Part shown: piece after piece, positions 31,865 through 57,344 of the stretch
How the letters are laid out: every line of letters starts with the position of its first letter
How positions within the stretch are numbered: the first letter of the stretch is position 1
NCBI RefSeq assembly: GCF_964188315.1
Contig: NC_135664.1
Coordinates: forward strand, 3,410,001 to 3,474,000
Source of the DNA: Podarcis muralis
Lineage: Eukaryota
Reading direction: 5' to 3'
DNA: 64,000 bases
Program-made: the position numbers and the translations under genes
Notes under the pieces: model-generated
Databases searched by the model: none
Seen by the model: only the letters and a program-made list of their open reading frames with translations
Told to the model about the DNA's origin: nothing

Positions 31865-32383
31865 TTTCAGGGACTGGCTGGATGGAGAGGAGTGGGGGGA
31901 GGCACCAGTTGGGAACCACAGGGAAGCCTCGGAAGAGGAAGGCTCAGAGCCAGGAGAGTGGTGGTGGGATGCTGAGGACAGATCAGAAGGTGAAGGGCGG
32001 AGGGAGATGGCTGGAGGCTGAAGATGCAGCAGACAGGCACGAGCAAGAAGAGCCCAGTGAGGCTTCACAGAGGAGAAGAGGACAGCATCTGCAGAAGCAG
32101 CCCAGGAGCTTGCTGTTCCTACTGCAGAGCTCTCCTCCCCCCCTTGTCTCCAAGGGCACGGAGGGCTTCCCATGTAGCAGAAGAAAGGGCACTGAGGCCC
32201 CTCCCTCATAGTGTAAGGCTGCTAGGGAAACGGAGTAGGAGGGGTCTTCAGGGGATGTAGAGGGGAGAGACCCTCAGTCCTGGCAACTGCTCGAAGGAGC
32301 AGTAGGCAGTGCCAAGCTGTAAGTTGTGTTTGTGAATAAAGAATTAAAATACACTGCTGAACTCCATGTCCTGTGTGCTGACA
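31865..32383 (+). mobile_element. Solo LTR (Gypsy-like family 'A'), copy 1
   Basis: T(T)TCAGGGAC...GCTGACA termini, AATAAA near 32335, TSD atag (31860 / 32384), purine-rich U3. Confidence 0.8.
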
Positions 32384-33112
32384 ATAGCTAAGCAGGGATA
32401 TGAACCAGAGTCACCCTCCTGTTCCTAGTCCAGCTTGTAATAGTTCTTCTATCTCAACTGTAAAAAAATCCTGTTTTGCCAGGAAAAGGAGCTTTCTACA
32501 CAGACTCATTCATGAGTTATCACATGCCCACTTTTGCATGTCAGACATTCTGGAAATTGCCAGCTTCAGAATGAATGTCACAGGGTGGGCTTCTCTGTGC
32601 AAGCTAAATATGCTCCTACATAAGGATGAAAATAAAACAAAGCCCAATATTCTCCATTTGTGGGGGGTTTTAAGTGGGGCCTGTGGCAAATCAAATATTT
32701 CTTTTTCTTTCAGACTTGCAAGATCTAAGTTGAGAGTTGCTGCTTTCATGGTATATTTGAATTAAGTAGCAGTGAGACACTTGTACTTTTTCCAAGAGCA
32801 AAAACAAATCTGTTTTTCAACATGTGACGTGATCACCCCATGAGTTTTAATGTCTATTTAAGTGATAATCTCTATCGCCTCATAATACAGCAACTAGCGA
32901 ACAGCTGTTCTGGCTGATCAAATGCAGAACCAAAGTTGAGACACTAATCTGTTGCAGAAGCTGTTTATTGCTCCTGGCGCATAAAGCAATAGGGGTTACT
33001 GCCATCCTGTAACCAGCAGTAATGAGAAGGAAGAGAAAACAAAAATGGTCTTGAAGCAGATCCCACCCCCGTATACTCTAAAAACCACCATGGGTTGTTT
33101 TAGGGGTTTTTA

Positions 33113-33616
33113 TGTGAGGATAAACTTAGATACTTGGAGACTCAGGCAGAAGTTGACCAAATAAGAAAGATTTATTTTACAGAACAAAGTTGGTAAAACA
33201 AATATGTCAGGAGATAAAAGTATTTCAGGAAACAGATAACTTAATAATACTTAATCTACCGAATGATACAGGCTTCTAAACACAGGAGGTAACACACAGC
33301 TTCTTTTAAACATCAATTGTTTAATTCGGTTATTACTCCTCAGATGTTACATGTTTCTAGACTAGATGGTCAATGCTCAGCTTATTTCCGTTTATGTTAC
33401 TTCAATTTCTTAAATTAGTTGTTGCTTAGGTGTTACCGCCTAACACTTTGGTTCCTAAACAAGGTGGAACTTTCTGTTGATTTCCCAACCTTTTCTCACT
33501 TCCGGTAGTATCACAGTTCCAGGGGATCCCCACGTCCCTCTTAACTGGTCTGGGAGTCTTCAGAGGATCTCTCTCCTCCTGACTGACATGCAACTCAAGG
33601 AGACAGTATCCTCACA
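33113..33616 (-). mobile_element. LTR of a different family, antisense
   Basis: Perfect 10-bp terminal inverted repeat TGTGAGGATA / TATCCTCACA, TTTATT (antisense poly-A signal) near 33171, and a pyrimidine tract right after it (PPT on the minus strand). No matching TSD. Confidence 0.55.
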
Positions 33617-35475
33617 GCTTCTCCTTCTCCTGACTCAAACTCAGCCCTCCCGTTACTCCCGTCTTTGTATCTAAGCCTAGAGACTCCTTTCTCTAGCTGG
33701 AGACGCTGAGGCCCCTGAGGGCCCCTCAATATGTGCAGGCAAGGGGACTTCCGGTTTGGATCGCCTGCAGTATGGGTGCGCGGAGAAGTTGCTGAACAGC
33801 TTTTCTGAACTGCATAGGGGGTTCTGAGGGGGCAACGCAAAGGCACTGCGACCCCCGAAACCTCAAGGGGGGCCCCCTTGAGGGAAGCGCAACCGGCAGC
33901 GTCGGAGGGACCCGAAACCCCTTTTGAGCTTTCTCTATTTTGGGATGACTCAGGAGTGACGGATCGAGAGACGCACTATGGTAAGCCCTGCGAACCCCAT
34001 GCAGTAATGCTTCGAGCCCCAGCTGAAAGTGGCGACAAATCTCCGTAACTTTAAGAATAACCGCCTTTGGGGTAGTCAAACAGATGTCAAAATTGAAAAT
34101 CTGAAGAATGGAGCCCAAGGCGTGTTGGATTTAACCTGATTAAACTAAGGAGCCCGACCTGTATTTCGGAGCTAAGATGGCGCTGGGACGCTAATCGGGA
34201 GAGTGAAACAAAGAAACTCTTACTTACCCGCTGTAGAAACAAAGAAGAGAAGTCCCCGCTGGGAGTTTCACGGGGCAAAAGTATCCAAGACAGATAGAGT
34301 TTATTTGGAAAGGAGACCTTAGAGACTTTGTATTAAATAGATCGCTAGAGGCAAGTTTGGAGAGAGACTAAAAGGAGTATTAGAAGAAGAAGATTGTAAG
34401 GAGGCGATAGTGAGAGACGGAGACGGAGACGGAGGGGGAAGGAGGGGGAGAGGTGAAGAGCCCTGAAACATGGAAGAGACGAGCCCTGCCCCCCTCCTCA
34501 ATACCTCCAACAGCCCCGCTGGTCTTTGACAGCGGTGATAAATAAAACAACCTTTGCCGACTTTGAGCCTCCGTCCTCCCCCCCCCCTTTTGTGTTTTTC
34601 TCTTCCTTCATACTTTTCGGCTTTTGCCGGCTTTTATAGCTCTCGCAACTTGCCGGATGTGGGAGGAAAACTTTGTGTGAGCTTGAGCACGTACGCCAGT
34701 CTTTATCTCCATTAGGGCTGCAATTAAGCAGATATTGTGAAACCTGGCTTGGAAATCTGGCGCGACTCTGATACTTGGCTGGACTTCGACGGACTTAATT
34801 ATTGTTTAGACTTAACTTCAACTAGAACTACGAAAGACATGATTTCGCCCAGTTCTGTTTAATTTGAAGAACACCTTCTTTCTGGGGGTGGTGGAAGCTT
34901 TGCTCTTCGCCTCACTCCAGTTGGAAACTAGGAGTGAAACCTAGCCACCTTCCCTTCTTTTGCAGACTATCTAAACCTCGTAGAAAGACTCGGAAACCTA
35001 TAGGACTTCCAGCACTGCCCTACCCTTTGCCCCCCTTATCTCCTCCCACGCCTACCCCCCCTTCCCTTTCCCCCTCCATCCCTGGCTTGCAGTCCTGGCG
35101 GTCCCCACGGAGACATCAATCCATACAAGGTCGGAACGAACTTTGGATTAGGTCAAACAAGTGGCTGAAGCCAGACTTGAAGAAAGAATCTTAAACCCTT
35201 CCTTTTTCCTTATGGTTTTTGGATTTTCTGTACCCCTTTCTTGTCCCCCTTCTTTTTTCAGTCCCCTCCCCGCTCTATTCCCTTCCCTCTTCTGATTTTT
35301 CTCCCTTTTCTCTTTTTCCTTTTTTACTGAATTTTACAATAGTGTTCTGACTTGTCTAAGGAGCAGGCCAACGGAATCCCCCTCCAGATTGTGCGCCCCC
35401 TAGGGGTGAGCAATAAGAAACATAAGTTTGTTTATCTTTAAGGATTGGGGAAGAGGAACGGAATAGACCGGGCAG

Positions 35476-36372
35476 ATGGCGGGGAGAGACGGGAAAAAGT
35501 CGGTGGGAACACCAATAGAGAGGAAAACGTCAAGACAAGAGGAAATAAGGGATTTGGATGCTTTATGGTTGAAAATAAAAGAGGAATTTAGACAGAACGA
35601 AAACCACATGGGGAAAAAGTTAGAAGAGATGCAGGAATCTTTTGATAAAAAAATAGAGGTGGTGGTAGGGGAACTTTCAAATAAAATTAAAGACCTAACG
35701 GGCCGAACAAAGTCCTTAGAGGACGCAAATAAGAGAACACAGAAAGAAATGAAAGATCAGAGAAGAGAAGTAGAAAAAATTAAGGAGAACTTTGAAGAAC
35801 TAAATAAAAGCCAAGACCAAGTCTTAGATAATTTAGCCATGATGGAAATGAAGCAAAAGCAGCTAAATTTGAAATTTAGAGGAATAGGGGAAGTAAGGGA
35901 CGAAGATATAAAAGGAAAAATGATAAAAGAACTGGCAAGGTGGCTAGCATTGAGAGAAGAGGAAGTTGCACAAACCATAGAAAATGCCTTTAGAATAAAA
36001 ATAAGACCGAAGCAAAACAAACAGAAAAGGATTCCAGGAGACTGCCTAGTGTTTTTCAGTTCGATAGAGATGAGAAACACAATTTTGAGAGAAAGCTATC
36101 AGAGGAAATTAATGATTGATGGGAAACCAATTATTGTCTTTAAGGAAATACCAATCAGGCTCCTTCGCAAGAGAGAGGGCTACAAACAGATAGTCAACAC
36201 TTTGAAAAAGAACGGTATACAGCATAGATGGGAATTCCCTGAAGGGATCTCATTTTTTTACAAAGGAAAAAGGTTCAAGATAACAGAGATTCAGGAAGTC
36301 AGTAAATTCCTTCGCAGATATGAAAAAGAGCTAGGGGGGATGATGGAGAGATATGGGGGGAAGGGGCCGTGA
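35476..36372 (+). CDS. L1 ORF1p (coiled coil + RRM + CTD), 298 aa, intact
   Basis: Heptad-rich K/E N-terminal half, then NLKFRGI (RRM start) and HRWEFPEGISF (CTD). Lies directly upstream of ORF2. Confidence 0.92.
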   Translation: MAGRDGKKSVGTPIERKTSRQEEIRDLDALWLKIKEEFRQNENHMGKKLEEMQESFDKKIEVVVGELSNKIKDLTGRTKSLEDANKRTQKEMKDQRREVEKIKENFEELNKSQDQVLDNLAMMEMKQKQLNLKFRGIGEVRDEDIKGKMIKELARWLALREEEVAQTIENAFRIKIRPKQNKQKRIPGDCLVFFSSIEMRNTILRESYQRKLMIDGKPIIVFKEIPIRLLRKREGYKQIVNTLKKNGIQHRWEFPEGISFFYKGKRFKITEIQEVSKFLRRYEKELGGMMERYGGKGP

Positions 36373-36567
36373 GAGGGAGGGGGAGGGGGGAGCGGGGGGA
36401 GGGTCGGAAGAAGAGGGAGGAGGGGGAGAGGGAGAGGAGGAGGCGAAGGAGGGAGAGACAGAGGAGGAACAGGAGGAAGTAGAGAATCAAAACACTCGAA
36501 TCTAAATCGGCTAAAACTTAAAACCTAAACCGATAAATTACTGACTTGTTAACAGATAAAAGCAATA

Positions 36568-39500
36568 ATGAATCTCAAAATTTTAACATGGAATGTAAAT
36601 GGACTGAATGAAAAAACAAAAAGGAATAAAATTGCAAATGTGTTGAAGAAGAAAAAATTGGATGTAATTTGTATACAAGAGACTCATGTAGCCAAAAAGC
36701 ACAAACATGTATTAGTAAATAAGAACCTGGGAATAGAATTCATAAACTCCGGGAGAGAGAAAAAAAGGGGAGTGGTAACGTATGTCGATGAAAAATGGGA
36801 ACCCAAACTGACCTATAAGGATGAAGATGGAAGGATATTGGGGGTTCAAATAAGCTTTCAAGGAGAAAAGATCGACGTGGTAAACATCTATGCCCCAAAT
36901 ACAAATAGGTCAGAGTTTTACAAAAAATTGGAACAAGTGTTACTAGAATTAGGAAATAACAAGACGATATTATTGGGAGACTTTAATGCAGTGCCGACAT
37001 TAGAAATGGACAGACAAACAGAAAAGAGAAAACGAAAACAAGGAAAGTTACCGGAATCATTTCAAGATTTGGAGGAGAACATGGACCTAACGGATGTATG
37101 GAGACACAAGCATCCAACAGAAAAACAGTTCACCTTCTTCTCAGAAGCACATAAAAGCTGGGGAAGAATAGATCAAATTTGGGCCTCAAGAGAAATTACT
37201 TTAAGAGTGATAAAATGTGAAATTCAACCGAGAACCTTCTCCGACCATAATTCAATAACTTTGGAACTAAAAGGAGAACTAAAGGGAGGCTTCAGATGGA
37301 GACTGAATGACTCTCTGTTGGACAACGATGAGGTCATCGAAAAAGCTAAAGCCACACTAAAAGAGTATTGGGATTTGAACCTCAATAAAGGAACAAAAAT
37401 AGAAACAGTCTGGGACGCCAGTAAGGCGGTTTTAAGAGGTTTCTTCATCCAGCAAAACAATCACAAGAAAAAAATAAGGCAGCAAAAGACAGATGAAATA
37501 CTTAAACAGCTAAGGGAGCACGAGAAGAAATTATTAGAACACCTGAAAGACGAGCAAAGTTTACAATCAATAAAAATACTACAAAGACAATACTCAATAC
37601 TAACGAACCAAGAAATAGAATGGAAAATCAAGCTAATGAAGCAGAGATACTTCGAATCGGCGAATAAAACCGGAAAATTCCTAGCCTGGCAATTGAGGAA
37701 AAGACAGAAGCAGAATGTCATAAATAAAATAATGGTAGAAGAAGAATTAATAGCAGACCCAAAAAAAATACAAAAAATTTTTCTCAAATTTTATGAGGAG
37801 TTATATAAGAAAGGAGAAGAAGACCCAGCTCAAATAGAAAAATATTTAGAGAATTGCACAGGGAAAACTGTTACAGAAGAAGAAAGAACACAATTAAATA
37901 GTCCCATTAGTATCGAGGAGATTGAGAATGCGGTAAAAAAAATGAAATTGGGGAAAGCACCAGGTCCGGACGGGTTATCGGCCAAATATTACAAAGTTTT
38001 GGGAGGTCAATTAGTACAAGTACTCTGTGACACCATGAACAGCATCCTAAGAGGAGGGAAAATACCCGATTCATGGAGGGAAGCCTTTATAACTGTAATC
38101 CTCAAACCAGACACGGACAAATCAAACATGAAGAACTACAGGCCAATATCGCTATTAAATAACGATTACAAAATATATGCGGACATAATGGCCAACAGAC
38201 TGAAAAAATGTTTAACAAAGTTAATCCACAAAGACCAAGCGGGTTTCCTCCCAAATAGATACCTGAAAGATAATGTGAGGCACGTCATTAATTTAATCGA
38301 ATATTTGGAGCTTAACAATAATATACCGGCGTCCCTGATTTTTATAGACGCAGAAAAGGCGTTTGACAACGTCTCCTGGAGGTTTTTACTAAAATCGATG
38401 GAAAAGGCAGGGATCGAGGGTGAATACTTGAAAGGAATACAAGCAATATACTCAAACCAACACGCCAAATTGATAATAAACAACAACCTCACGAATAGAT
38501 TTAAAATAGAGAAAGGAACAAGGCAGGGATGCCCTCTCTCCCCGCTCTTGTTCATTTTAGCTCTGGAAGTCCTGGCGAATAAAATAAGGTCAGAAACGGA
38601 GATAAAAGGGATTAAAATAGGATTTAAAGAGTATAAATTAAAAGCTTATGCGGACGACCTGATGTTATCCCTAGAAGAGCCGCAAGAAAGCATGGGCAAA
38701 GTATTGGAGATCATGGAGGAGTACGGCAAAATATCGGGCTTCAAGTTGAATAAAACCAAAACAAAAATGTTGACGAAGAACCTGAGTAATGATGCGAAGG
38801 AAAGACTAGAGAGACAATATGGAATCAAAGTGGCTAAGAAATTAAAATATTTAGGAATCTGGCTTACACCCAAAAACATAAATTTAATTGAAGACAACTA
38901 CACGCCAACATGGAACAAAGTGAAAAAGGACTTGGATGTTTGGAATAGGGTGAATCTTTCGTGGTTGGGCAGGATGGAAGTGATAAAAATGAACATACTC
39001 CCTAAGATGCTGTTCCTATTTCAAAACATACCTGTTATCAGAGGGACTAAAGTATTTAAGGACTGGCAGAAGACCCTTTCAAGATTCATATGGCAGGGAA
39101 GAAGGCCAAGGATCAGATTCAAATTACTAACAGATCGAAAGGAGAGAGGAGGGCTGGCAGTACCTGATTTAAAATTATATTTTGAAGCGGCTTGTCTTTG
39201 CTGGGTTAAAGACTGGATAACCTTAGAAGACACGGATTTATTAGACCTGGAAGGGGCCGACAATAGATTTAGCTGGCATGCCTACCTCTGGTCAAATAAA
39301 GATAAAGTACACAAAGGGTTCTCGAGCCATATTATTAGAGGTCCTCTGTATGAAGTCTGGGAAAAAAATAAGAAATTGCTGGAATGGAGAACACCCTGGT
39401 GGCTATCCCCAACAGATATCTTATCAATAAAAAGAATGAATATGGAAGAGCGAAAACTGACATATGAAGATCTATTAGTAAGATCCCAAGACAGCTGGAA

Positions 39501-40321
39501 GCTAAGACCATATGAAGAATTAAAGGAGAAGTTGGAGGGCTGGCTACAGTATCATCAAATTAACGCGAAATGGACAGAAGATTAAAAAAATAGGAATGAA
39601 TGAAAAGAAGTCCAAATTTCAGATTGAAGTAATTGAAAGTAAATCAAAGATATTATCTAAGATGTACAATATACTACTGGAATGGGAAACTAAAGATGAA
39701 GAGATCAAAGAAGTCATGGTTAAGTGGGCGATAGATTTGGGGCATACTATAGAATACGAAAAATGGTCAAAATTGTGGAATGAGGGATTAAAATTTACGG
39801 CAAGCGCTGCAATTAGGGAAAATTTGGAAAAGATGATTTATAGATGGTACCTAACACCAGAAAAATTGAGTAGAATGTACAAGACTGCAGACAAGGCTTG
39901 CTGGAAATGTAAAACAAAAGAGGGTAATTTTATACATATGTGGTGGACATGTGAGGAAATCAAAAAGTTTTGGGACCAGATATATAATGAGCTAAAAAAG
40001 ATATTTAGATACACATTCCCCAAAAACCCAGAGGCCTTTTTACTAGGGATGGTTGGGAAAGAAATTCAGGATAAAGATAAAACTCTATTTCAATATTCAA
40101 CAGCAGCGGCCAGGATGCTAATCGCTCAAAATTGGAAAAGCACAAATCTTCCAACGGTGAGGGATTGGCAATTAAAACTATACGACTTTATTGAACTGGC
40201 AAGGCTGACACAAAGAATTAGAAATCACAAAAATATAAAGCTAAAAGAGGATTGGAACAAGTTTATGGTTTATTTTGAAGGCAATTTTAAAAACTTACCA
40301 AATACAGCAGGTTTGTTTTAA
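36568..40321 (+). CDS. L1 ORF2p (APE endonuclease, RT, Cys-rich domain), split by one frameshift at 39583-39595
   Basis: NVNGLN, QETH, GDFN, RIDQIW, SDH; PGPDG, YRPISLLN, DAEKAFD, RQGCPLSP, YADD; CWKC...HMWWTC in the second ORF (39596-40321). Confidence 0.96.
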
Positions 40322-42110
40322 AATCTCCGATGTGCAAACTAAAAAAAATTTTTTGTATACCAGCGGTAAAAATGAAACTACTGAAAGTAAATACCCGAAA
40401 TCAGTAGGGAAGGAAGTCGTGGTTTTTATGTTTCTTGGTTGTAGTTTTTTTTTTGTCTTTTTTCTTACTTCTTTTTTTCTTTCTTTTTTTTCTTTTTTCA
40501 CTTCTTCTTTTTAGTATGAATGTATTTGTTTTTTCTTTTTGTGTGGTAATAAGGAATTCAATAAAAAGAATTTAAAAAAAAAAATATGTGCAGGCAAGGG
40601 GCCAAGCTCCCCTCCCAATGTTGAGGGGCAGAGAAGGCCTCCTCCCAATGATGCACCACACCACCACCCCCTGCCCACAAATGCGGCTCAGAACCCCTCA
40701 AACCATTGCTGCTGCTTGCTGCCTGCCTGCTGCCTGCTCACTCTTGGCAGGCTCTCCAGAGCAACTAAGTCAAGATGTCCTCTGGCCCCACAAAGCCTCC
40801 CTTGAGGGCTGCTGCAGCCGCAAAAGTACCTCTAGAAGCCGGGCCACACTTCCAGAAGGCGGTCGGCAGTTGGAGTAGGCCTTAATGGAGGCCTTGTGGC
40901 GGAGGCCTTGGCCTAGCCAGCACCCCAGTAAGGTGGTGGGTGGCAGAGATGGCGGAGGCCTGGGCTGCCTTTGCAGGCAGGGGGTAGTAGTGGGACACCT
41001 TGTGCATCGGAAGGAGGCCGAGCACGGAGCCCAGCAGCACACACATGTGGCATTACGCATGATGTCATGACATCACATTGCATGTGCAACACTAGACCCC
41101 CCACACACACCATCTGGGGTGCAAGTTGGTGCCTCTGGCTGTAGATATTTTCCTCAGAGTGGATGTTCCACACAGCGACCAGAACCAACTCATTAACTCT
41201 CCCTTCCCAAACTCTCAACCTTAACCGTCTCTGCCCATCTCTCAGAAATGGCACCTTTTATTCTCCCTCCCAAAGTGCTGGCTCCACTCTTGGCAGCCAT
41301 TCAGAGAGAGGTGGGATTCTGAGGCACTGCACCACCCGACTCTGGTCTGGCTCAGCTGTCCATCACAGGACTCCTCTTCCTTCAAAATGTTTGGGGGCGT
41401 TACATTTCCAAGTGTGTGTGTTTCTGGTTCCATTGGATATCTTAATGGCAACCAAGAACATATAATAAAGGACCCTCAAATCATCCCAAGGGGCCTCATT
41501 ATTCTGCCCCTATAAAGAGTTGTTGTACTCCCCTACTACTGGCATGTCTCTGCAGTCACTCTGTACCCCAAATCCTACCTGCCAACTAATTAACCTATTC
41601 CTCTGAGTGAGCTCTAGTCAGGGCCAGCCCACCCATGAGGTGGGTTGAGGCAGCTGCCTTGAGCAGCAGAACCCCAAGAGGCGGTGCTCCCTTGGGTGCC
41701 CTGCTGCATCCACTCCTGCCTGCGCAAGATCTCACTGGGACCTGCCGTTGTTGTTGCTGCTTTGCAGGCACAACTGCACAACCAGTCACGGGAAACTTCA
41801 GCCATGATGGGGCAGCATCTTCCTGTTTCGTCTCAAGCAGCAAAACGGAACACACCATCCCTCTCTCCAGCAGTCAGGGTGTTCATCACACCCGTGAAGC
41901 ATTTGTTGCTACATTGGTCCAGCTTTGTTACGGAACTTGACTGACAGTGAGGAGTGCAAAGCCGTATCCAGCTGTTATTGCAGGAGCCCCTGTGCCTATG
42001 GAGTGCGTTTGGAGTAAGCAACAAGCTTGCAGTAAGTTACCTGAAGTGGGATCGGGAATAGAACTCAAGGCAACCTACTCTTCCTTCACTGGTTCTTCCT
42101 TAAGCAACTA

Positions 42111-42473
42111 ATTTTTTTAATATATTTTTATTAAAGATTTTATTGATTTACAAAGGTATGTGCAATGTCTCTCTCGTGTTTTTTTCCATGTAACTTTTTT
42201 TTTTTACAAATCGGTTTCATTTGTTGAGACATTAGGGAAAAAGGGGGAAAGAGGTGGAGGGGGGAAAGATGAGTGGGGATGAGGTCGGGTGGCAATGTTT
42301 CTATTTTACTTAATATGTGTGGGGTTTTGTGTCAGCATTGCTTGTGCAGGTTCTCTGCTGTTCACTTGTGTTCCTTTGGTGGTGAGAGAGGTTGGGGTTG
42401 GCCTAGGGTGTGGTTGTCCATTTGTGGTTGGCTGTGGTGGTCTTTGTTTTCATGTGTGAGTGGGGTGGGTGGT
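42111..42473 (-). mobile_element. 5'-truncated L1-type 3'UTR insertion
   Basis: T-rich tail with TTTATT at the left end; 8-bp TSD agcaacta (42103, 42474). Confidence 0.65.
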
Positions 42474-42514
42474 AGCAACTACTTATTGATATGTAGATTG
42501 TTTCCTCCTGCTTT

Positions 42515-42900
42515 AGAATCATAGAACTATAGAGTTGGGAGGGGTCCCAAGGGCCATTTAGTCCAACTCCCTGCAATGTGGGACTCTTTTGCCCACGACC
42601 CTGAGGTTGAGAGTCTCATGCTGGTGAGCCAGTGTGGTGTAGTGGTTAAGAGCGGTAGTCTCGTAATCTGGGGAACCGGGTTCGCGTCTCCGCTCCTCCA
42701 CTTGAAGCTGCTGGGTGACCTTGGGCCAGTCACACTTCTCTGAAGTCTCTCAGCCCCACTCACCTCACAGAGTGTTTGTTGTGGGGGAGGAAGGGAAAGG
42801 AGAATGTTAGCCGCTTTGAGAATCCTTAAAGGGAGTGAAAGGCGGGATATCAAATCCAAACTCTTCTTCTTCTTCTTCATGCCCCACTAATTGAGCTATC
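42515..42900 (-). mobile_element. Squam2-type SINE (tRNA-Lys head + CR1 tail), split by a nested SINE
   Basis: The reverse complement reads GATAGCTCAATTAGTGGG|GCATGAGACTCTCAACCTCAGGGTCGTGGG...CTATAGTTCTATGATTCT. Confidence 0.82.
42622..42876 (+). mobile_element. Squam3-type SINE nested in the Squam2-type SINE
   Basis: GAGCCAGTGTGGTGTAGTGGTTAAGAGCGG head, (CTT)n tail, TSD tcatgc (42616, 42877). Confidence 0.92.
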
Positions 42901-42939
42901 ACAGGAGTTTACTGCCTTCCTCCTTCTTCTCCAAGGTCA

Positions 42940-43349
42940 ATTCGCAGGAATTCCCCCCACTTGGCTGATTGGCTGTAGCCATTTGGGTTTCGCCTGCCGC
43001 CTAGCAATTCATCACAACTTGAACAACTGGTTCAGGTGATAGGAATGGGAGGACGCTCTCGCCATCCCTATGTGAAGGGTATTCCGTTAAGGGAACCCAG
43101 GGACTCAACTTGGTTTGTGCCTGTGCCTGAGTCCAGGGAGCATCTAGGGAGTGAACAGAGTCTGTTCCCAAACTTTTCACCTGCCTCAGGTGTTCACCCT
43201 TGGCTGACCTATGACAGAGCTCTGGGTCAGTGCTACTTGCAAGGGTGCAGGGAGCTACTCAAACCAGAGCCTATGCAACCACTCACTTTTCTGTAATCAA
43301 TAAAGTTGTGTCTTTATTTAGGAGGGAGGTCTCTGGGTCTGAACACACA
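42940..43349 (+). mobile_element. LTR-like fragment
   Basis: CCAAT-like 'gattgg', 'caataaagttgtgtc', ends '...gaacaca'. Left end unresolved. Confidence 0.35.
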
Positions 43350-46300: not shown

Positions 46301-46603
46301 TTGCATTCATTTTGTTGGTTGGTTAATGGATTAAAAGCAAGATGACTAAAGAGCTTTAACGGGTTGACACAGCATTAGTGAACATGGCAGGCAGCCCTTG
46401 CTTCTGTGTACATACTGAGCTGATGAATCAAAGTGGCTAAGAGAACAATCCTATTTGCACTTATCTGAGAGGAAGTCTCATCGAACTCAGTGGGTCTTCC
46501 TTTTCAGCAGATGTGTTTATGATTGCGTTACAAAAGGCTGGTTCATGCCTTACTTTTTCTGAAGTGCACTCCAAATATTTTCTGTGTATTTACAGATGTT
46601 AAG

Positions 46604-47042
46604 TGCCATGGACTGATTGGATGCAGAGCGATGGTGGGAGGAACCAGCTGGGGAACTCCCAAGGGAAGATGGCTCAGAGCCTGGGGAGTGGTGGTTAGAG
46701 GAAGAAGAGGGAGAGGACTGGAAGGAGGAAGAGTCAGAAGCTGAAGAAGCAACAGGCTTTAGTGAGCAGAGAGAGTCTGCGGAAGAGGGAAGTCAAGAAA
46801 CAGAGCTAGAAACTGAAGCAGGGGAGGGGAATGAGGGAAGCCAAGAGGCAAAGATGAGGCAAGCTGGTGAAGAGTCACAGGAGAGGCAGCAGTGGGGAGA
46901 CTTGGACCTTCAGAGGCAAGACCTGGTGGAGATGAGCTGCTGTGCTCATGAGGACTGACACTTCTGTGCAGATCCTGTTGTTGCTAATAAAGAGTTAACT
47001 CCAACTTGCTCGGTGTGATTTACTGCTGACTCGCTCCTGTCA
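46604..47042 (+). mobile_element. Solo LTR family 'A', copy 2
   Basis: TGCCATGGAC...CCTGTCA termini, AATAAA near 46986, TSD ttaag / ttagg; shares GGCTCAGAGCCNGGNGAGTGGTGG with copy 1. Confidence 0.8.
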
Positions 47043-47080
47043 TTAGGTGTGACATTAGCACATGCTAATTTGCACATTAT

Positions 47081-47452
47081 AAGGTAAAGGTACCCCCTGA
47101 CCGTTAGGTCCAGTCGCGGACAACTCTGAGGTTGCGGAACTTATCTACTCTATAGGCCAAGGAGCCGACGTTTGTCTGCAGACAACTTCCGGGTCATGTG
47201 GCCAGCATAACTAAGCCACTTCTGGTGCAATGGAACACCGACACCAGAGCAGTGCACGTAAACACCGTTTACCTTCCCGCCGGAGCGGTACCTATTTATC
47301 TACTTGCACTTGACGTGCTTTTGAACTGCTAGGTGGGCAGGAGCTGGGACCGAACAATGGGAGCTCACCCTGTCGCGGGGATTGGAACTGCCGACCTTCC
47401 GATTGGCAAGCCCTAGGCTCTGTGGTTTAGACCACAGCGCCACCAGCGTCCC
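47081..47452 (-). mobile_element. Sauria SINE, full length, antisense
   Basis: (AAGGTA) tail at the left; the reverse complement starts GGGACGCTGGTGGCGCTGTGG; flanking 'cacattata'. Confidence 0.92.
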
Positions 47453-47511
47453 ACATTTTCACATTATACACATATATTAATTATGAAGCCATGGCTGGTT
47501 GTGCTTTCACA

Positions 47512-47655
47512 CAGAGACACATAGCTCAGTGGTAGAGCTTTGCATGCTGAAAGGTAGAGCTGTGAGAGTTTCCCAGGTGAAACCCTGGTGAGCTGCTGCC
47601 AAACAGTGCAGACAATACTGAGATACAGTAGGTGGACCAATGGTCTGATTGCCTT
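47512..47655 (+). mobile_element. Degenerate tRNA-derived SINE, family unassigned
   Basis: A-box 'tagctcagtggtagagc' and 3' 'gacaatactgag...ggaccaatggtctga'. Confidence 0.55.
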
Positions 47656-47902
47656 ACAGGGGTGTCCAACTGGTCGATCCCCGGGAGGTTCGGGTTGATC
47701 GTGGTCTCTTTTTCCTTTGCGTGGGAAAAAGAGGATTCAGCCCGCCTGTCCTCCAAACTCTGACGTTCCTTCCTAATGAAAGCTCAGCAGCTTTGACCTG
47801 AAAGCCCCCTGCCCAAAGGGGTAGATCACTGCCAGTTTTTTATTCTGTGAGTAGATTGCAGTCTCTTGGGGCTGGACGTCCCTGCTCTAAGGCAGCTTCT
47901 TA

Positions 47903-47987
47903 GGGGAAGGTGCAGCTCAGCCGTGGAGCCCATGATTTGCATTCGAAAGGTCCCAGGTTCAATTCCTGGCATCTTGAGGAAGAGCTG
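47903..47987 (+). mobile_element. tRNA-derived SINE head, 3'-truncated
   Basis: A-box-like 'gcagctcagccgtggagc' and B-box 'ggttcaattcc'. Ends abruptly at a duplicated 59-bp segment. Confidence 0.55.
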
Positions 47988-50900
47988 GCAAAATATCAAT
48001 AGGCCTCCAGCAATGCCCTTCCAAAGGAAACCAACCTTGTGCTCCTTGTGCCCTGAGCTCCACCCTCATTGAGTAACTTTCAAAGACCAATCTGGTGTGG
48101 AAAGTAAATGCCTTCACTTGATCAGTCGTTTGTTTGAGAGATTGACTCCGATTTATGAATTTCAGGGTTTATTATAATTTCCTTACTACATAAAGCATCT
48201 TGGATTTGTAGAAAAATGGGGATATACATTTGAAAAGAAATACAAGTTCAAAACACCTATCATTTGTCATTTAATACACTGATCAGCAAGCAGATATCTG
48301 CTGCTATTGTTTCATTAATGTCACTTTTTCAGATTGTAATTCCTTATTTCAGAAAGGATAAAGATATGAACCAACAATGTTTCTTTTGAGGGTGGGAGGA
48401 ATGTGAATAGCCTGACATTTAGCTAGGCTAAAGGCTGACAGATATGTCCAGAGTATATGTACATAGACACGCTTTATTTTCTGGCAGGTGGTGTGGAGAA
48501 AGGGTACATCTGCAAAAGCGCCATGTGTTTCTTAGCAAACTCTATTTAGTTTACTTTTTTAAAATAGTCCTTCCAGGTGTTCAGAAACGCGCTAATTTGA
48601 AGACATCATTGTGTTGGGGAAATTGATATTTGTTCGTGAGGAAGAGAAATGGCCTTCCATACAACGGGGTTGGGTGGGCACCTTCCCCACAAGCTGAGAA
48701 AAAGAAGACACAGAGAAAGAAGATGGGGTTCAGCTGAGGAGGGAAAGGCAACATCAAGTCACCTGAAGACCTTTTCCAGTTTGCTATTATTTACCAAAAG
48801 TTTGCTATATGATGATCCTTCATTAGTACCTTATACTAGCTAGATTGTTGTATTTATTTGCTTGATTATTTAATATATATTAAGTATATAATAGCTCCCT
48901 TCAATGTAAAATTTACAAAGTCATTTATGGGATAAAAACAACAAAACCTTAACCATACAATAAAATGTCAATGATCAATTCAATAAAATGTTCCATGGGA
49001 ACAGATTCTGGTGAACTGCTTCACAGGCCGTCTTTAGAGGAGCTGAATTTATGCTCAGATTTATCGATCCCGGACATTGGATAGTATCAATCAAATCACA
49101 AGATGTGTCAATAGGCCAGATCCTTTGAGTGCTTGGTTAGAGTACGATGAGGATAATTTTCATCCCTCCAGGCTAATTCTTGGCATTGGAAAAGACTACT
49201 GTAACATCAGGAAAGGAATGGCTGATGAACAACCATTGAAAGTTTCAAGATGAATCAACTGATATGTAAATTCTTACCCCAAAGAGGGTTGGAACTGTAG
49301 TTTTGACAGTAGAGAAGTGCAACAACAACAATGACAACAACTGTTTTAAAGCTCAGGCTCCACTTTGGTTTCACCTGGATATCTGTAAATAGACACAAAT
49401 ATTGCAAAATATCAATAGGCCTCCAGCAATGCCCTTCCAAAGGAAACCAACCTTGTGCTCCTGGAATTTCTCATATTTCATTGTTTTTAGCTGTTATTTT
49501 CTTCTCATGGCTTATTGCTCTAAGAAATAAAGAACCGTCTGCTGTGTGCTATCTGCCATTGATCTCAATCAGCCTACTCCCAAGGAAATCCCATTGTCTA
49601 AATTCCCAGGAAGCTGTGTAAAGGATGGTAGCTCACAATTTTCTGCTTCATAATAGCCTTTTCTAATTGCAGTTCTAGCTCTCAGGGATCATGTTGAATA
49701 CTTGAATGATTCCCTTTGCTTTGCCAAAATAAGCTTGACACTATTCCTGTGTTCCCAATTAAAGGTGATATATAGAAAACAGAGAAGTCATAAGAAAGCT
49801 TTTTAAATGGAAGATAAATTCCTTGAAATTGCAAGCTGCAAGAGGTGTTTATTACAAATGATTTAAAATAAAAGCAGTAAGCAGCTGTAAAAATGTCAAC
49901 TCTGGAAAATATTGGATCTCTGCCTCCAGGCTAGAGGTGGAGAATTGGTGGCTCCTGGGGTCAATTTGACCCACACAACCATTTTGACTCCCCCTTTAGC
50001 CTCTCCTGGAGCCCCATCCCTCCTCGGCAGCAGCGCAAATGGGACCACAAAGTGCTATCCTGAGGACCTTCCGCTTCTCCTTGTAGCTGAAGGGGAAGGT
50101 GGGCAGAGCATTGCAAGTATTGAAGGTGCTGCAGAATATATCCATGTGTGTGCATGCGTGCATTTAACAGAAATGTTTGTTTTCATTTTCCCCTTCCATA
50201 AACTACAATTTCTAATGCCATCTCGCTACCCGTTTGGGTCATCTATAGGTAGAGATATTAAAAATTCAACGGTTTTGTTTCCAGCAGGGAGCTGTTATCT
50301 ACTCCCTAAGGAGATAACTGACAATGCATTTGTGCCTTGAATTATTGGTTGCCAAGACAGATATCAGATGCAGGGTGACAAAGAAGCATCCTACTTTGTT
50401 AGCTTTAACTAAATGGGAGTCAACTGGGTCAATTGCATCTTGGGGGGAAACTCTTACCAAAAGAAGAACAATTATATTCTGTTCAGATATTGCTTGGTTG
50501 TTATAATTTTTCCTGGGGCTTAGCCAACCATTCTAAATAAAATATTTAGAACATTAAGTTCAAATGAGAGGCTTTGTGTGCAAGTTCCTATAAAAGCCCT
50601 GTTTTGCTTAACAGATTTGCTCATTCTTCACTCCTTGTTTGCAAAAGCATCGACTGTGTTGCTGTCCACTGCTCAGTGTCATTTCCCACCTTTGTGTGCC
50701 TTCAGGTTTTTAACATTGATTTAGAATCCCTCAGTATTTGTATTCAATTGACAAATCAAACCTGTGTGTCTTTATGGAGTCTTACTCTGCTATGTTAAAT
50801 GGACAAAGCAATTTCTTTGTTCTGAAATGCATATTCCCATACAGTACAGTAAACCACCAACAGGCACAGCCCATCATGGTTTCTTGTTGCTTCTCTTTCG

Positions 50901-52187
50901 TATCGTGCAATGGTGTGTGGGATTCAGTCGTATAAAAGTTTAAAAAATAGTCACGACAACAACCTATAAGACCTTTTATCCCCACACCCCAAATTATTTC
51001 TGCAGGCTCTCATGGTGGCACACCAACAGACATTCAGGCAATTACGCAGTTTGGTTGCTTGGTGTGAGGTGGGGGCGTGTAGCTCTTTTACGCCAGAGAA
51101 CAGGACATTCCTTCTACCTGGGATGGTCATGCTCTTCTGTCCAGCTTCAGGAGGGATGCACATGCAGTACAGCCAGCCAGCCAAGTCAACTCTGGTGATC
51201 AATGGGGTGGCTGATGTTACAGTCAGATCAACCTTACAACCATGTGTGCGGATTGTGCAGGACAACAGTACATTAACTAGGCTTCAGTATTCAACTTGGT
51301 TTTGAATTTGCACTGATTTTGATGTACAGTCATCTCTTATGCCCCAGAGAATTCTCTTTCTTTTTCCAGGATTGTGTTCCAGCTACTGTTGAGGCACCAT
51401 GTTTACGATAATAAGATGTCCTCCAGAGAGGGCCTCAAGTTTTATTTTAATAATTGTGTATTATAATTTAAAATATTCCGGATGAGAATTTATCCTGCCT
51501 AGGTTTGTTTGCTGCTACTTTCCTGGGTTTTATGGATTTTTGTATGGTTTTTATTATAACCCATTCTTACAATAAATCTTTATGTAACAAACAACTAATA
51601 AATTGAAGTAATAATAATAATTAGAACAACTCCATCTAATTTGCATAAGGTTCAATTTACAGACATGGCAGACAAGCATAAAGCTCAAGTTATTTGCCTT
51701 CTTTATGCAACAATTTGGGTTCTTGCCGCCTCTCCCAGTCCTCAAACAGTAAGAAAGTTATACGACTTTTGAAAAGGAAAAGAATCATTTCTCTAACTTT
51801 CTTTCTAGCTGGAATGATAAGACACAGCAATATGGTGAGGTGATTAATGTAGAAATAGCCCAGCTACTATAATGCATCTCTCCTGATAAGGCAACACATT
51901 TTACTGTGATGTTGCAGAAGTGGATCTGTGCTTTCTCTTGGCTTATTTCATTTCTGTGTTTCCTTCCTTCCTTCCTGATGGCAGTGGGAACTGAAGATCC
52001 ACAGGAGATGAGAACATGAGTGAGTGAGGAAGTGAGGTTCTTGCTTACACAAGAGTGAACTTCAGAAGAGACAAGGCGGCCGTTTTTGTAACAATCCCTG
52101 CAAGGAGGGGATAGAAAGCTATGACCTCAGGAAAAGAATTTGGGGCCCAGCTTCATGCTGTACTAGCTTTCTTATTGCAAAGGTGGT

Positions 52188-52218
<31 letters not shown>

Positions 52219-52589
52219 AAATGTAGTGGAGGGTTTAAAAATATGATCCTTCACTTAAAGTCTGAAGTGGTACAATTTATTCTGCTGCCTTCACAGACCA
52301 GGTTTTCATTTCAACTCCCTCCCTCCCACACCTGTGCAAATGCTAGAACTGGCACTTTTGAAGGATAGGCAGACCAGCAGCTCCGAGAGGAGATCAGGCT
52401 TCAAAATGAACAATCTCTGCTACTTTACAAATCGGTAGCTTGATGTCTGCATACTCAACAGTAATATGCATAGAAGAATATACTGCAAGGCTGCCTGAAA
52501 TAGCATCTGTAGCTTCCTTTCTGTCGTGATACCTAGTATCACTCACGATGGGCTAGAGCTGCGTGCAGATAGTCTCTTGAAAGTCTCTA

Positions 52590-52813
52590 CCCTCCTTGTG
52601 GACAGAGAAATTGAGGGGTGGGATATTTACAGAAGTTTATAAAATTATGCCTGGCGTGGAGAAAGTGGAGAGAGAAGAGTTTTTCCTCCCTCTCTCATAT
52701 GCCAGAACTGATGGACACCCGATGAAGTCAAATGTTGGAAGATTCAGAACAGATAAAAGAAAGGACTCTGGGCTTTGCTCCCACTGGCGGTAATAATAAT
52801 AATAATAAGCAGC

Positions 52814-52857
<44 letters not shown>

Positions 52858-53250
52858 TATACCCCGCCCATCTGGCCGGGCTTCCCCAGCCACTCTGGGC
52901 GGCTTCCAGAAAAATATTAAAATACTGTAATACATCAAACATTAAAAGCTTCCCTAAAGAGGGCTGCCTTCAGATGTCTTCTAAAAGTCTGGTAGTTGTT
53001 GTTCTCTTTGACATCTGGTGGGAGGGCGTTCCACAGGGAGGGTGCCACTACCGAGAAGGCCCGGTAGAGATGACCACCAACCTGGGTGGCTTTAAATGAG
53101 GACTGGACAAAATTGTGGAGGATAAAGCTAACAGTGATTACTAGTAGCAGCTCTGCCTCCCCTGTTGAAGGCAGTAATGCTTCTGCATACAAGCTGCTGG
53201 AAGCCACGGGAGAAAAAGTGCACTTGGGTTTGGGCCCCACTTGCAGGTGC
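52590..53250 (+). mobile_element. Old CR1 3' fragment interrupted by an L2-tail insertion
   Basis: EVYKIMPGVEKVERE...GRFRTDKRK, resuming at 53062 'gtagagatgaccaccaacctgggtggctttaaatgaggactggacaaatt'. Confidence 0.75.
52793..53061 (-). mobile_element. Young L2-type 3'-end insertion
   Basis: ORF 52935 frame reads RAFSVVAPSLWNALPPDVKE..TFRRHLKAALFREAF; (TAA)n tail; TSD cggta (52788, 53062). Confidence 0.88.
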
Positions 53251-53661
53251 AGATGTGGAATTTCTGCAAAACACATTATCCGTGAGGCCAGTGCCACATG
53301 CACAAGAGTGCAGCCTGGCCACAGAATTGGTAAGAACCAGTTAAGACTGAACGTTAGAGTGAGAAACAACTCCGTGTAAGGAACAAGGAGGGCTCTGATA
53401 GATACAACAGAAATGGGTTGTGCTTTCAAGGACCGTAGTCAGATGAAGAGATGGTGAAACAATGAGTTGGCCAAAGGTGGATGGTGATGGTGAAACAGCC
53501 AAGATGACGCGCATTTTTTCAATATAGAGTGTGTCGTAATGGAAAGCAGAGTCTTTGAACTTCATCCTGGATTCCTGAATAAAGCCTGACCAGTTGGGGA
53601 TTTGGTGTGAGCCCCCAAATCTTGAATCCCCCAAATCTCTCTCACAGTTTCCCACTGTGAG

Positions 53662-53808
53662 AACAAGATGTTTAGGGAAGCTTTTAATATCTGAAGCACT
53701 ATTGTATTTTAACATTTTGTTGGACCCGCCCAGAGTGGCTGGGGAAACCCAGCCAGATGGGTGGGGTATAAATAAATTATTGTTGTTGTTGTTGTTATTG
53801 TTATTGAT
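53662..53808 (+). mobile_element. L2-type 3' tail
   Basis: 'gcccagagtggctggggaaacccagccagatgggtggggtataaataaattatt'. Confidence 0.8.
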
Positions 53809-54027
53809 GCTGAAGTAGTTGGACCATTGGCCTCATCCAGCATCTTTGTGTTGTGGTCAAATCTTAAATTTCTCAATTTCTCCAGCAGGAATAGACATTT
53901 GCCGACATTTTCTCAGGGGTGGGGCTCACCATCAACAATGGCAGTAATAACTATCCTTCCTTCTTTCCTCAGGAGATGTTGTTGCTCCTGCTGCAAGTGG
54001 GAGCCAGGAGCCACATGCAGAATGTTA

Positions 54028-54089
<62 letters not shown>

Positions 54090-54377
54090 TGCTTACATTT
54101 ATATCTTACCTCTCTTCTGTCACCAAAAGGCAGAACTCGTGAAGATGCAGCTCTGCTCTCCCGTTTCTCCTGACCGCTCATGGAAATTATTTTCAGGGCT
54201 TCCGGTGTGGTGGAGCCCACGCCAGTTTCTGTTTCAGAGAACCAGGCATCAGTATTGTGTTTGAGTTTGAAAGCAGATGTGTTGTAACAAAATGATAGCA
54301 ATGTATATTAAGAATAAGAATAATGACAATGACGGGTATTTTGTGTTTTCCTTTTGTAATTTTATGCTATAAATAAA

Positions 54378-54425
<48 letters not shown>

Positions 54426-54583
54426 ATGTGGATGCCTAGGCAGATGTCCTTTTCGATGTGTCAATGGGGGGGCAGAGTCTACTGCTGCCCCCCATCTGTG
54501 CCTTCATTCTACAGCCGAGGAGGAGTCCTAACACCTGAATAGGCCACTGTTCACTCTTGCATCTGAACTGGCATACTTTAGGT

Positions 54584-54779
54584 CTGAGCTTTCCAAACTG
54601 TGTGTAGCAACACATTAGTGTGTCGGTTGCAGTGTGTCGTGTGAATGTTCCCTATGCACCTTCCAGGGCTGGAAAGGGGTTAGTTTAACCTCCGGTTTGC
54701 TAGTAAAACTGAATTACTGTGTCACAAAATGATGCATGTCTAAAATGTGTCACCAACATGTAAAGTTTGGAAAGCTCTG
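54584..54779. mobile_element. hAT-superfamily MITE
   Basis: TIRs CTGAGCTTTCCAAAC / GTTTGGAAAGCTCTG; perfect 8-bp TSD ctttaggt (54576, 54780). Confidence 0.9.
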
Positions 54780-55597
54780 CTTTAGGTGATATCCAGTTTT
54801 GTGCGTTGGGATCTAGGGTGTTGCGGAGGGGGGTGTTGCTTGGTGGAGGTTGCTGCTTTTTAAAGATTTTGTTTTGATTTATGTGGAAATTGTTCAGTTT
54901 TTTCAATATTTTATTTATTATGACTACTTTTGTTATGTTGTGGTTACGTATTTTTTCATGTTGTAAGCCAGCTTGAGCACAGTTTGAACTGTGGGAAGGT
55001 GGTATACAAATAAAATTAAGTATGTCTGAATGTAAACTTTGAGTAGACTTCCTTTTCCTCTCCACCTGCGTGCTCTCCCCCAATCTGCTCCCATGTCCTC
55101 GCCCCCCTGCAGCAGAGTTTTGGGGATGAGTGGTGCTGGGGCTGCATATTGGGGAGGAGAAGAAGTCCTGTTGCACCAGCAGAAGGCTGCCTTCCCAACC
55201 AGAGTTGCAAACCAGGAACAGATCATGTGCAGAATTGATCAACTAGCAGATCTGAATGGGGCTGGGTGGGGAAGGAAGAGAAAGTGCAGGAACCCACATC
55301 AAATTCTGAACTGACCCAAGGTGTCTCGCTAGCTGTTACATGCCTCTCCCTATGAGGGAATGGTTATCAACTTGATTTCATTCTCCAGCAGAGCACTGAA
55401 CAGTGATGATCACACAAAATTGAACCTGCGTTTTCTCTTGGCTCATTTCATTTTTGTGGGGAATGGAACACAAATTTCTGTCTCCATGAGGGGAATCCCA
55501 ATCGCCCTGGTGAGTGTTGGGAATGCAAAGTCAAATACAAATTCTCTTCCCTGTTAAGAAAGAAATGTGATTTGAAGTGAGGCTGCAGGGAGCCAGA

Positions 55598-55800
55598 CAG
55601 AGGACCTTCTTGGTAGTGGCGCCCACACTGTGGAACGCCCTCCCTTCAGATGTGAAGGAAATAAGCAGCTATCTTATATTTAAAAGACATCTGAAGGCAG
55701 CCCTGTTTAGGGAAGTTTTTAATATTTAATGCTGTATTGTTTAATGCTGTCTTGTTTTTAACACTCGTTTGGAAGCTGCCCAGAGTGGCTGGGGAAACTC
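55598..55800 (+). mobile_element. L2-type 3' fragment
   Basis: 'gtagtggcgcccacactgtggaacgccctccc...agacatctgaaggcagccctgtttagggaag...gcccagagtggctgggg'. Confidence 0.82.
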
Positions 55801-56549
55801 ATCTATAAATGAGATTTATAGAAACTCTTAAAATAAGAGGATGAGGTTTATTCCTTCTACAGGTTAGAAGGAAAGAAGAAAGGTAGCTCTTCAATGGGTA
55901 TAGGAGAAAGCATTGCAAGGGAATAGTCTGGTAAAACACGGGACGCAATATGAGGTGTGCAAAATAGAGCCCCTTTTGTACTGTCCCCTGGAGGTGGGAC
56001 ACTGCAACTCGACTCTGTCTTGCCTTGCTGGGGTAATGGGAAACTAAGTCTAAGTGAGACGAGCCAGAATTTGGCCCTCCTTATGGCAGTATGGCCTCAT
56101 TTTATGGAATGGGTTCTGCTAAACATGAGAGGAGTGACAAAGAAAATGATAAGTACATGGAATCCATTTCTGCATTCCCTGCTGCCCCTTTTCTCTTGGA
56201 CTCAGTTATTTGGCAGAAATGACTCTGCTGAAGCTATTATACCTAAGAGGTGATATTGATTCCCAGAAACAAATGACTAGGTATTTTGCAATTGAAACAG
56301 CATACTAGGTACTCCATTCCACTTCTGTTCTTAATGAAGGTGCCACGGGAATCATAGACCCTCAGGGTCATCCAGTCCAGTCCCCTGCAATGCAGGAATT
56401 ACTTGGAGGAGCCCACAAATTTTATTTTGGCTCCATTATTTGTGATGGACCCTTTCCTGCTCCTGAGTCTCTGGCACATGGAAGGACTTGGGGAGTTCTC
56501 ACATGTCCTGTTGAACTTTAGAGCAGCAGCCAGCAGTGTGAGAGACCAG

Positions 56550-56702
56550 GGACTAATCTACACTGGTGAGTTATAATGTTATAAATGCGTTATAAAAATG
56601 TGACACCAGGGGGCGCTGTACAGCAGGCAACGGGAAATTCCACTGAGAGCTATAGAACGTTTTTTTTTCTTAGCATCTTTTAATATCAGTGTAGATCCAG
56701 CC
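56550..56702. mobile_element. PIF/Harbinger-like MITE
   Basis: Imperfect TIRs GGACTAATCTACACT / AGTGTAGATCCAGCC; 3-bp flanks cag / tag. Confidence 0.6.
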
Positions 56703-56822
56703 TAGCCCAGCCAGTCCCCATTCCAAAGGGCAGCTTCCTCCTACTCGTGACCAGCAGCGACTTCTGCTTGCCAGATGCAGCAGAGAATCGTGTCACCTGG
56801 GGGAAGCTCTGCGGTGTGTGAG

Positions 56823-56975
56823 TGTCAGGGACACCGAGGTGTAGTGGCTAGATATGGAAGTGTGGGCACTGGGAGAAGGAAAGAACGGGTCCATGATCTG
56901 AGGGAGCCTGGAACAGCCGGGAGACCCGAGTCAGAAGCAGGAGAAGATGCAGGAGTGGAGACTGAAGAGCAGGAG

Positions 56976-57034
<59 letters not shown>

Positions 57035-57137
57035 CTGGTGGAGAGTCAAGGGCTTCCCCACCTTCTCCTTCTCCTGCCCCCTCCTCTCCTGCTCCACTGT
57101 CTCCCTGGACCAGAAGAAGTTTGAAGCGGGAGGAGCA
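56823..57137 (+). mobile_element. LTR family 'A'-related, copy 3 (3'-truncated, internal (GA)n at ~56978-57029)
   Basis: TGTCAGGGAC start, WLD-x-E-x-W in the same frame as copies 1 and 2, acidic stretch, then PLSPWTRRSLKREE. Confidence 0.62.
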
Positions 57138-57344
57138 CATTCCCCCTCCCCATCACACAATGCAGTGTCCCTGCTCACTGTCCCCTTGCCAAGCCACACA
57201 CACACCCCGCCACAAACCCAGGCCTTGGGGAAGGTTGCAGCAGAGGGGCTCCATTCTCTTTCCCCAGGCTGCTACTTGGTTCCCCAGGTTTCAGGAGGCT
57301 GTTTGCTTCTTTGTTCTCCATCTGGAAAGATCTCCCTCACTCCT

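Follow-up and report, generated by a model that had tools for sequence, protein, structure and literature searches.

Solo long terminal repeats of Podarcis muralis probably carry the end of a squamate chromovirus pol gene with a candidate nucleosome-binding motif

Can a long terminal repeat (LTR) encode the end of a protein? The question is raised by a 64-kb window (the whole stretch analysed: 64,000 nucleotides of Podarcis muralis contig NC_135664.1, positions 3,410,001 to 3,474,000 of the forward strand) in which three diverged LTRs share a peptide-like reading frame starting at LTR base 2. The original prediction, made from the letters alone, was that pol of a Gypsy-like parent, or an extra 3′ open reading frame (ORF), runs through the polypurine tract into the U3 region of the 3′ LTR and there adds an acidic stretch and a basic end reminiscent of arginine anchors such as that of HMGN. 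All three proved to be decayed solo LTRs, from three subfamilies (c1, c2 and c3) of a lizard chromovirus, a Gypsy element. We conclude, with reasonable but not high confidence, that they carry the end of a squamate chromovirus pol gene, whose arginine motif likely tethers integrase to the nucleosome acidic patch.

The LTR frame is under purifying selection

Translated from LTR base 2, genomic copies begin with an acidic, Trp-rich head, which is followed by an SPR block, an S-L-R-L-L block and a stop near base 430. D/E and K/R number 35 and 4 in the first 100 residues of one c2 copy (L058), and 5 and 9 in its last 43. The coded stretch amounts to about 140 codons in c2, slightly above the 100–130 first guessed, and in 8 of 9 comparisons the commonest spacing between anchor motifs was divisible by three.

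The translations first reported for the window were reproduced, as were the two differences between the GSEPGEWW blocks of copies 1 and 2 (Table 1), both at synonymous third positions. Two such sites alone are no proof of coding; the signal also holds on 60 DNA-selected genomic copies (22 c1, 24 c2 and 14 c3), which remained from 80 after 20 were dropped as duplicates or for want of a called start. On their alignment we calculated net nonsynonymous to synonymous ratios (dN/dS), in which within-subfamily values are subtracted from the pairwise dN and dS. The base-2 frame yielded 0.30 for c1–c2 (95% interval 0.17–0.49), 0.44 for c2–c3 (0.24–0.72) and 0.39 for c1–c3 (0.18–0.64), and 0.28–0.51 once CpG-prone codons were removed. 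The remaining sense frames gave 1.11–1.80 and two of the antisense frames 0.80–1.52. Subfamilies also exchange synonymous codons inside the motifs, for example CCA against CCC for Pro, and TTA, CTC and CTT for Leu. The base-2 frame, alone among sense frames, has a ratio well below 1 in this comparison, which had been proposed as a check, and is under purifying selection between the subfamilies.

Two details of decay in the window copies fared unevenly. Frameshifts between head and tail had been proposed for copies 1 and 3; the basic end of copy 1 is indeed shifted relative to its head, whereas head and tail of copy 3 share one frame and only the middle block is displaced. A His in copy 1 and a Trp in copy 3 had been ascribed to CpG decay of Arg codons. 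The His reading holds, because the codon before S-L-R-L-L, in 24 readable c2 copies (of 30 protein-selected), is CGC in 6, CAC in 9 and TGC in 3, the pattern left by such decay. The Trp is explained only weakly, because its position is AGG in 9 of 14 c3 copies, with CGG and TGG once each.

Pol continues into the 3′ LTR in related elements

Pol–LTR junctions were located by pattern searches for a G-rich tract ahead of an LTR start. In a sister subfamily, the chromodomain (Pfam Chromo, E = 1e-10) continues directly into LTR base 2, and the tail contains SPRTRRALKVGEQRAQ, the c1 counterpart being SPRTQRALHVAEQRAQ. Junctions of the VRD type numbered 14 in 31 loci, and nine of these 14, which are not independent of one another, keep the chromodomain frame (p = 0.017, the expectation being one third). 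A c1-type LTR (L186/L255) lies behind integrase and chromodomain remnants detected by tblastn. A first polypurine tract pattern was discarded: it gave 28 places, none with a chromodomain upstream, and its seven GGGGTAA matches were near-identical duplicates near contig ends.

In two young families, Y1 and Y2, the layout is intact; the protein of one young element is 98% identical to an entry labelled Podarcis muralis. Y1 LTRs are about 756 nt long and 99% alike within one element. The Y1 pol stop lies 209–211 codons inside the 3′ LTR at 16 of 28 junction-bearing loci, 12 of the 28 combining the chromodomain and at least 150 LTR codons in a single open frame. Y2 is in frame at six of eight loci, with 111–117 codons in the LTR. 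For the LTR-coded part, dN/dS is 0.24 (0.15–0.37) in Y1 and 0.41 (0.21–0.87) in Y2; upstream pol has 0.16 and 0.08, respectively, and shifted frames 0.97–2.21. An 11-nt stretch following the 5′ LTR of Y1 is complementary to the LTR from base 610; if this complement marks the start of R, as the Tf1 mechanism would have it, the Y1 tail would span all of U3.

The sister subfamily, Y1 and Y2 thus share one order: integrase core, SH3, chromodomain, polypurine tract and about 111–209 codons of 3′ LTR. As predicted, these relatives have no stop before the polypurine tract and enter the LTR at base 2; the extra 3′ ORF offered as an alternative becomes unnecessary, as pol itself makes the entry. We are close to certain that pol reads through into the 3′ LTR. 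By homology with c1 and the sister subfamily, the parents of c2 and c3 presumably did likewise.

The parent elements are assigned to the chromoviruses, those of c2 and c3, whose internal parts were not found, by homology. Y1 has the Ty3/Gypsy chromovirus order of protease, reverse transcriptase (RT), RNase H and integrase, with a chromodomain at the integrase C terminus (Pfam), and the c1 parent is assigned by its integrase and chromodomain remnants. A tree of the integrase C-terminal half plus chromodomain (26 sequences, all other than named reference elements) groups the c1 and sister remnants together (92/80) within a clade of 14 rows (99/97), which takes in every squamate-labelled sequence along with two unlabelled ones. 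Endogenous retrovirus identity, which would call for a retroviral pol, env and a tRNA primer site, was rejected: the internal remnants are Gypsy integrase with SH3 and chromodomain.

Separately, Y1 has a DDW...SEPSYWWDD stretch between chromodomain and polypurine tract (L111:9250-9500) that resembles the DWLD...SEPGEWWWD head in c1 and c2 LTRs, as if the LTR border had shifted relative to the tail. By hand count, 27 of 149 Y1 matches lie in the first megabase of large contigs; the figure is about 1 of 105 in Y2, and none of 149 c2 solo LTRs lies there. Part of the Y1 matches are subtelomeric duplicates, and with one family per type the counts carry no causal claim. One 30-Mb contig (C20), which may be a repeat-rich sex chromosome, has many LTR-internal junctions and chromovirus matches.

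An HMGN-like motif ends many squamate tails

The predicted likeness to HMGN became stronger. The Y2 tail ends in SP, 15 residues and RRSARL, with PRRSARL at seven of eight loci; a c2 copy (L171) reads SPRTRRG...RRSLRLL; and pol proteins of Anolis end in an acidic stretch, SP and then RRSARIAA or RRSLRIAA. On the evidence of the sequences, an HMGN-like RRSxR[LI] core with three arginines is thus present in Y2, Anolis and the c2 copy, and absent from Y1.

A broader pattern, R[RK][ST]xR[LIVM], occurs in the tails of 5 of 16 squamate-labelled proteins, with two more near-matching; the others have long acidic/basic tails without the motif (three), a short tail or none (two), a fused gene model (two) or no chromodomain (two). 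It matches three times in the 215,447 residues upstream of the tails, a background less Arg-rich than the tails, so that the enrichment is overstated. Among 163 homologues that are neither squamate nor amphibian, 139 end within 40 residues of the chromodomain, unlike the squamate clade, which adds more than 100 residues, mostly inside the LTR in lacertid elements; none of the 16 mid-length tails in these 163 has the motif.

Comparison of a c2 tail (P0001) with longer proteins scored none of 1,382 candidates and returned no Pfam family, an atlas search with a Y2-type tail returned no usable match, and a 37-residue basic block had no match among PDB sequences at E values up to 10.

Two frog-labelled proteins (P0067 and P0076) of a separate amphibian clade carry RRSPRL in their post-chromodomain tails, by chance or as a second origin of the motif. 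These tails (2 of 18 amphibian ones) were set aside as support, being Arg-rich throughout.

A proposed chromatin tether and its alternatives

In the relatives, the pol frame passes through the polypurine tract into U3, and selection has kept the tail that this adds, in which acidic residues are followed by an SP site and by a basic block whose end, in most families seen, is RRS[AL]R[LI]. In the mechanism we propose, this tail would stay on mature integrase, where the chromodomain would read H3 methylation and the RRSxRL block would set an arginine into the H2A–H2B acidic patch in the manner of HMGN, so that integrase would touch chromatin at a further point in addition to its chromodomain; the acidic stretch may act as a flexible spacer or an intramolecular shield. 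Each new insertion places the coded U3 at both ends of the element, so that the solo LTRs which recombination leaves behind carry the frame with neither promoter nor start ahead of it; the copies in the window are not expected to be expressed. That the tail motif is an acidic-patch tether is a proposal we slightly favour, given its match to known anchors. More tentatively, and short of an even wager, squamate chromoviruses may have evolved an HMGN-type arginine anchor in their own U3 promoter region; integrase would then read the nucleosome at two points, the H3 tail through its chromodomain and the acidic patch through RRSxRL, lacertids and anoles would both have retained this arrangement, and exchange of tails between families would retune insertion sites.

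Several observations weigh against these readings. The motif is missing from Y1, from three Podarcis-labelled proteins and from a sister copy (L194), all of which have basic tails; the Anolis proteins form one clade, and the position of their tail in an LTR is deduced from the likeness of the junction, as proteins alone were seen. The sole c1 junction (L186) is decayed and out of frame, three pattern searches of the genome found no c2 or c3 junction, five of the 14 VRD-type junctions are out of frame, one of the 14 is the query itself and three are near neighbours on a single contig. On the side of selection, one antisense frame also falls to 0.56–0.72, as expected from shared third positions; the control region 3′ of the stop is short and noisy (0.38–1.90, with 3 of 18 intervals ending just below 1); and the middle distance is in frame in only 7 of 14 c3 copies.

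The most substantial alternative accepts the read-through and takes the basic block for a nuclear localization signal (NLS) or a general DNA- or RNA-binding patch, possibly switched by phosphorylation at SP and RRS. Integrases of Ty1 and of plant chromoviruses are reported to contain basic NLS-like stretches (PMC3605345, cited here, like the other papers below, for the portions of its text that were available), the SP-R-x-RR block is kept more widely among old families than RRSxRL, and the Y1 end RRTVRRKRW and that of the other Podarcis proteins, RRKLPRRESRRR, are basic and have no anchor motif. An NLS would not, however, need a fixed S-x-R-[LI] after RR, which is retained in families of both lacertids and Anolis, with Arg predominating over Lys, and the two roles are compatible; as a full account of the tail we consider it unlikely, if a serious contender. 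It is much less probable that the c2 and c3 frame was a separate small ORF, or a peptide released by the protease, apart from integrase. The failure to find c2 and c3 junctions would suit such an ORF, as would an ATG at LTR base 5 of c2 (TGTC-ATG) and a similar TGTG-ATG in Y2, but the ATG is missing from c1, c3, the sister subfamily and Y1, the Y2 frame is continuous with pol in spite of it, and it lies upstream of the likely transcription start.

Least credible of all, and in our judgement hardly tenable, is the view that the frame arose by chance from a purine-rich U3 under promoter constraint, as neutral read-through devoid of protein function. GA-rich DNA is indeed poor in stops in several frames, and the base-3 frame of c1 and c2 is as stop-poor as base-2, but in old and young families alike the pol frame is the only one with dN/dS below 1, and synonymous swaps occur inside the motifs. 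These selection data largely refute the accidental origin.

Relation to known systems

Coding in U3 is less unusual than first held. All plant CRM group A elements, according to the accessible text of PMC3059260, extend pol into the 3′ LTR, with a CR motif replacing the chromodomain, and Bingo elements of Beta vulgaris are described as running the polyprotein frame into the 3′ LTR with a putative chromatin-targeting part (PMC3605345). The lizard elements similarly appear to encode a putative chromatin-targeting part where pol enters the 3′ LTR. They share the CRM group A layout and are not members of CRM: CRM-A elements are centromeric, tRNA-primed plant elements in which the CR motif stands for the chromodomain, whereas the lizard chromodomain lies upstream of the polypurine tract, the acidic/basic tail is separate and the copies are dispersed.

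Among chromoviruses, the lizard elements resemble the Tf1/Sushi group of fungi and vertebrates (in GyDB, the V-clade with Sushi-ichi and Amn) in having Gag, protease, RT, RNase H, integrase, a Tf2-type SH3 and a chromodomain, and also in the 5-bp target duplication; Y1 has a candidate for the self-priming site that Tf1/Sushi elements use in place of a tRNA site (PMC6317226, as far as its available text goes). Group I chromodomains are described with Y-W-Y cage residues (PMC3605345); Y2 and the sister subfamily keep these, and the Y1 chromodomain lacks the first aromatic residue and the Trp.

Known acidic-patch binders include the HMGN core RRSARLSA, Dsup RRSSRLTS and Dot5 RRSARIAT (PMC12480509, PMC12871379). 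The lizard motifs are like them in sequence and in standing within a low-complexity tail, unlike them in showing no homology beyond six to eight residues; the likeness is probably convergent, and binding by the lizard tail is a prediction. Arginine anchors on the H2A–H2B acidic patch are also described for the chromatin-binding sequence of prototype foamy virus Gag, where the anchor steers integration, for Kaposi's sarcoma-associated herpesvirus (KSHV) LANA and for cytomegalovirus (CMV) IE1 (PMC9040877). These belong to Gag or DNA-virus proteins and differ in sequence, whereas the lizard motif would sit on integrase and be LTR-coded; in the accessible portion of that review the word stem 'retrotranspos' is absent.

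The open-access papers searched yielded no element that pairs an intact chromodomain with an HMGN-like tail coded in the LTR; Repbase, Dfam and subscription journals lay outside this search and may record the read-through. As far as that search reached, the novelty lies in the vertebrate clade, in a chromodomain retained next to the LTR-coded tail, in the evidence of selection and in an HMGN-like motif that elements of lacertids and anoles have in common. To our knowledge, access of vertebrate chromoviruses to chromatin has been credited to the chromodomain alone, and the tail offers a candidate second tether that is easily tested. If it is one, acidic-patch mimicry would extend from viruses (LANA, IE1 and foamy Gag) to retrotransposon integrases. 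The coded tail also makes protein-coding fossils of thousands of solo LTRs in lizard genomes: codon constraint shaped their U3, a point that bears on dating, on estimates of neutral rates and on the raw material available for exaptation. Retroviruses, too, have genes in U3, namely nef, sag and bel2; these are separate genes, unlike the lizard LTR coding, which continues pol, and the likeness lies in coding near or in the 3′ LTR.

Genomic copies and features of the window

Searches of the 1.52-Gb genome with copies 1 and 2 gave 1,642 and 3,399 first-look candidates, respectively; the head of copy 3 gave 33 and a c2 peptide 9,919. These figures are not copy numbers. Copies are dispersed over all large contigs and fit the hallmarks of solo LTRs (TG...CA ends with short inverted repeats, a polyA signal, target-site duplications and no internal genes). 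Both ends were called by script in 38 copies from 80 loci; 16 of these 38 show a 5-bp target duplication matching at 4/5 or better, and none matches 4/4 at 4 bp or 5/6 at 6 bp. No gag or pol adjoins the LTR in 140 loci, except for a single RT match at the far edge of one (L023); this and the 5-bp duplications therefore make nearly all copies solo LTRs of c1, c2 and c3. DNA-selected copies share no flank besides one duplicate locus, and no 5′ junction of c1–c3 was found. One locus (L031; G000:C3:18116159 and 18120049) holds a near-identical pair of LTRs of a type intermediate between c1 and c2, inverted and 3.9 kb apart; a DIRS-like layout was rejected for this pair, which has no internal ORF between its members, both being ordinary LTR copies.

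The window has no gag or pol remnant. The 3′ end of copy 1 is about 20 nt shorter than those of its relatives; copy 2, compared with the c2 copy L058, retains the acidic part and has the basic block deleted; and copy 3 contains a (GA)n run at about 56978–57029.

Table 1. LTRs and LTR-coded segments in the window (window coordinates).
Feature	Positions	Strand	Observations
LTR copy 1, subfamily c1, solo	31865..32383	+	Flanks ATAGA/ATAGC (5-bp target-site duplication, 4/5); AATAAA near 3′ end
Acidic Trp-rich head of LTR-coded pol tail, open part in copy 1	31866..32018	+	Translation; frame is the pol frame at relatives' junctions
GSEPGEWW block, copy 1 (common to copy 2)	31941..31964	+	Translation
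Basic tail end, copy 1 (SPR block and H-S-V-R-L-L block)	32141..32233	+	Translation; reads PLSPRARRASHVAEERALRPLPHSVRLLGKR
LTR copy 2, subfamily c2, solo	46604..47042	+	Flanks TTAAG/TTAGG (5-bp target-site duplication, 4/5)
GSEPGEWW block, copy 2 (common to copy 1)	46671..46694	+	Translation
LTR copy 3, subfamily c3, 3′-truncated	56823..57139	+	Similarity to subfamily ends at about 57139; 3′ end lost
SP-W-TRR block, copy 3, same frame as copy 3 head	57094..57135	+	Translation; reads PLSPWTRRSLKREE

Elsewhere in the window, positions 35467-40321 (+) hold what we take, from its motifs, to be an L1/Tx1-like long interspersed element (LINE), with an ORF1 of 301 codons and an endonuclease–RT ORF2 in two frames (1010 and 265 codons). 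A second, presumably CR1-like LINE at 58043-61651 (−) is spread over several frames, with an esterase-like piece of ORF1 and an endonuclease–RT. A GC-rich island at 15001-17000 (0.53–0.60, against about 0.43 around it) is probably a host promoter or first exon.

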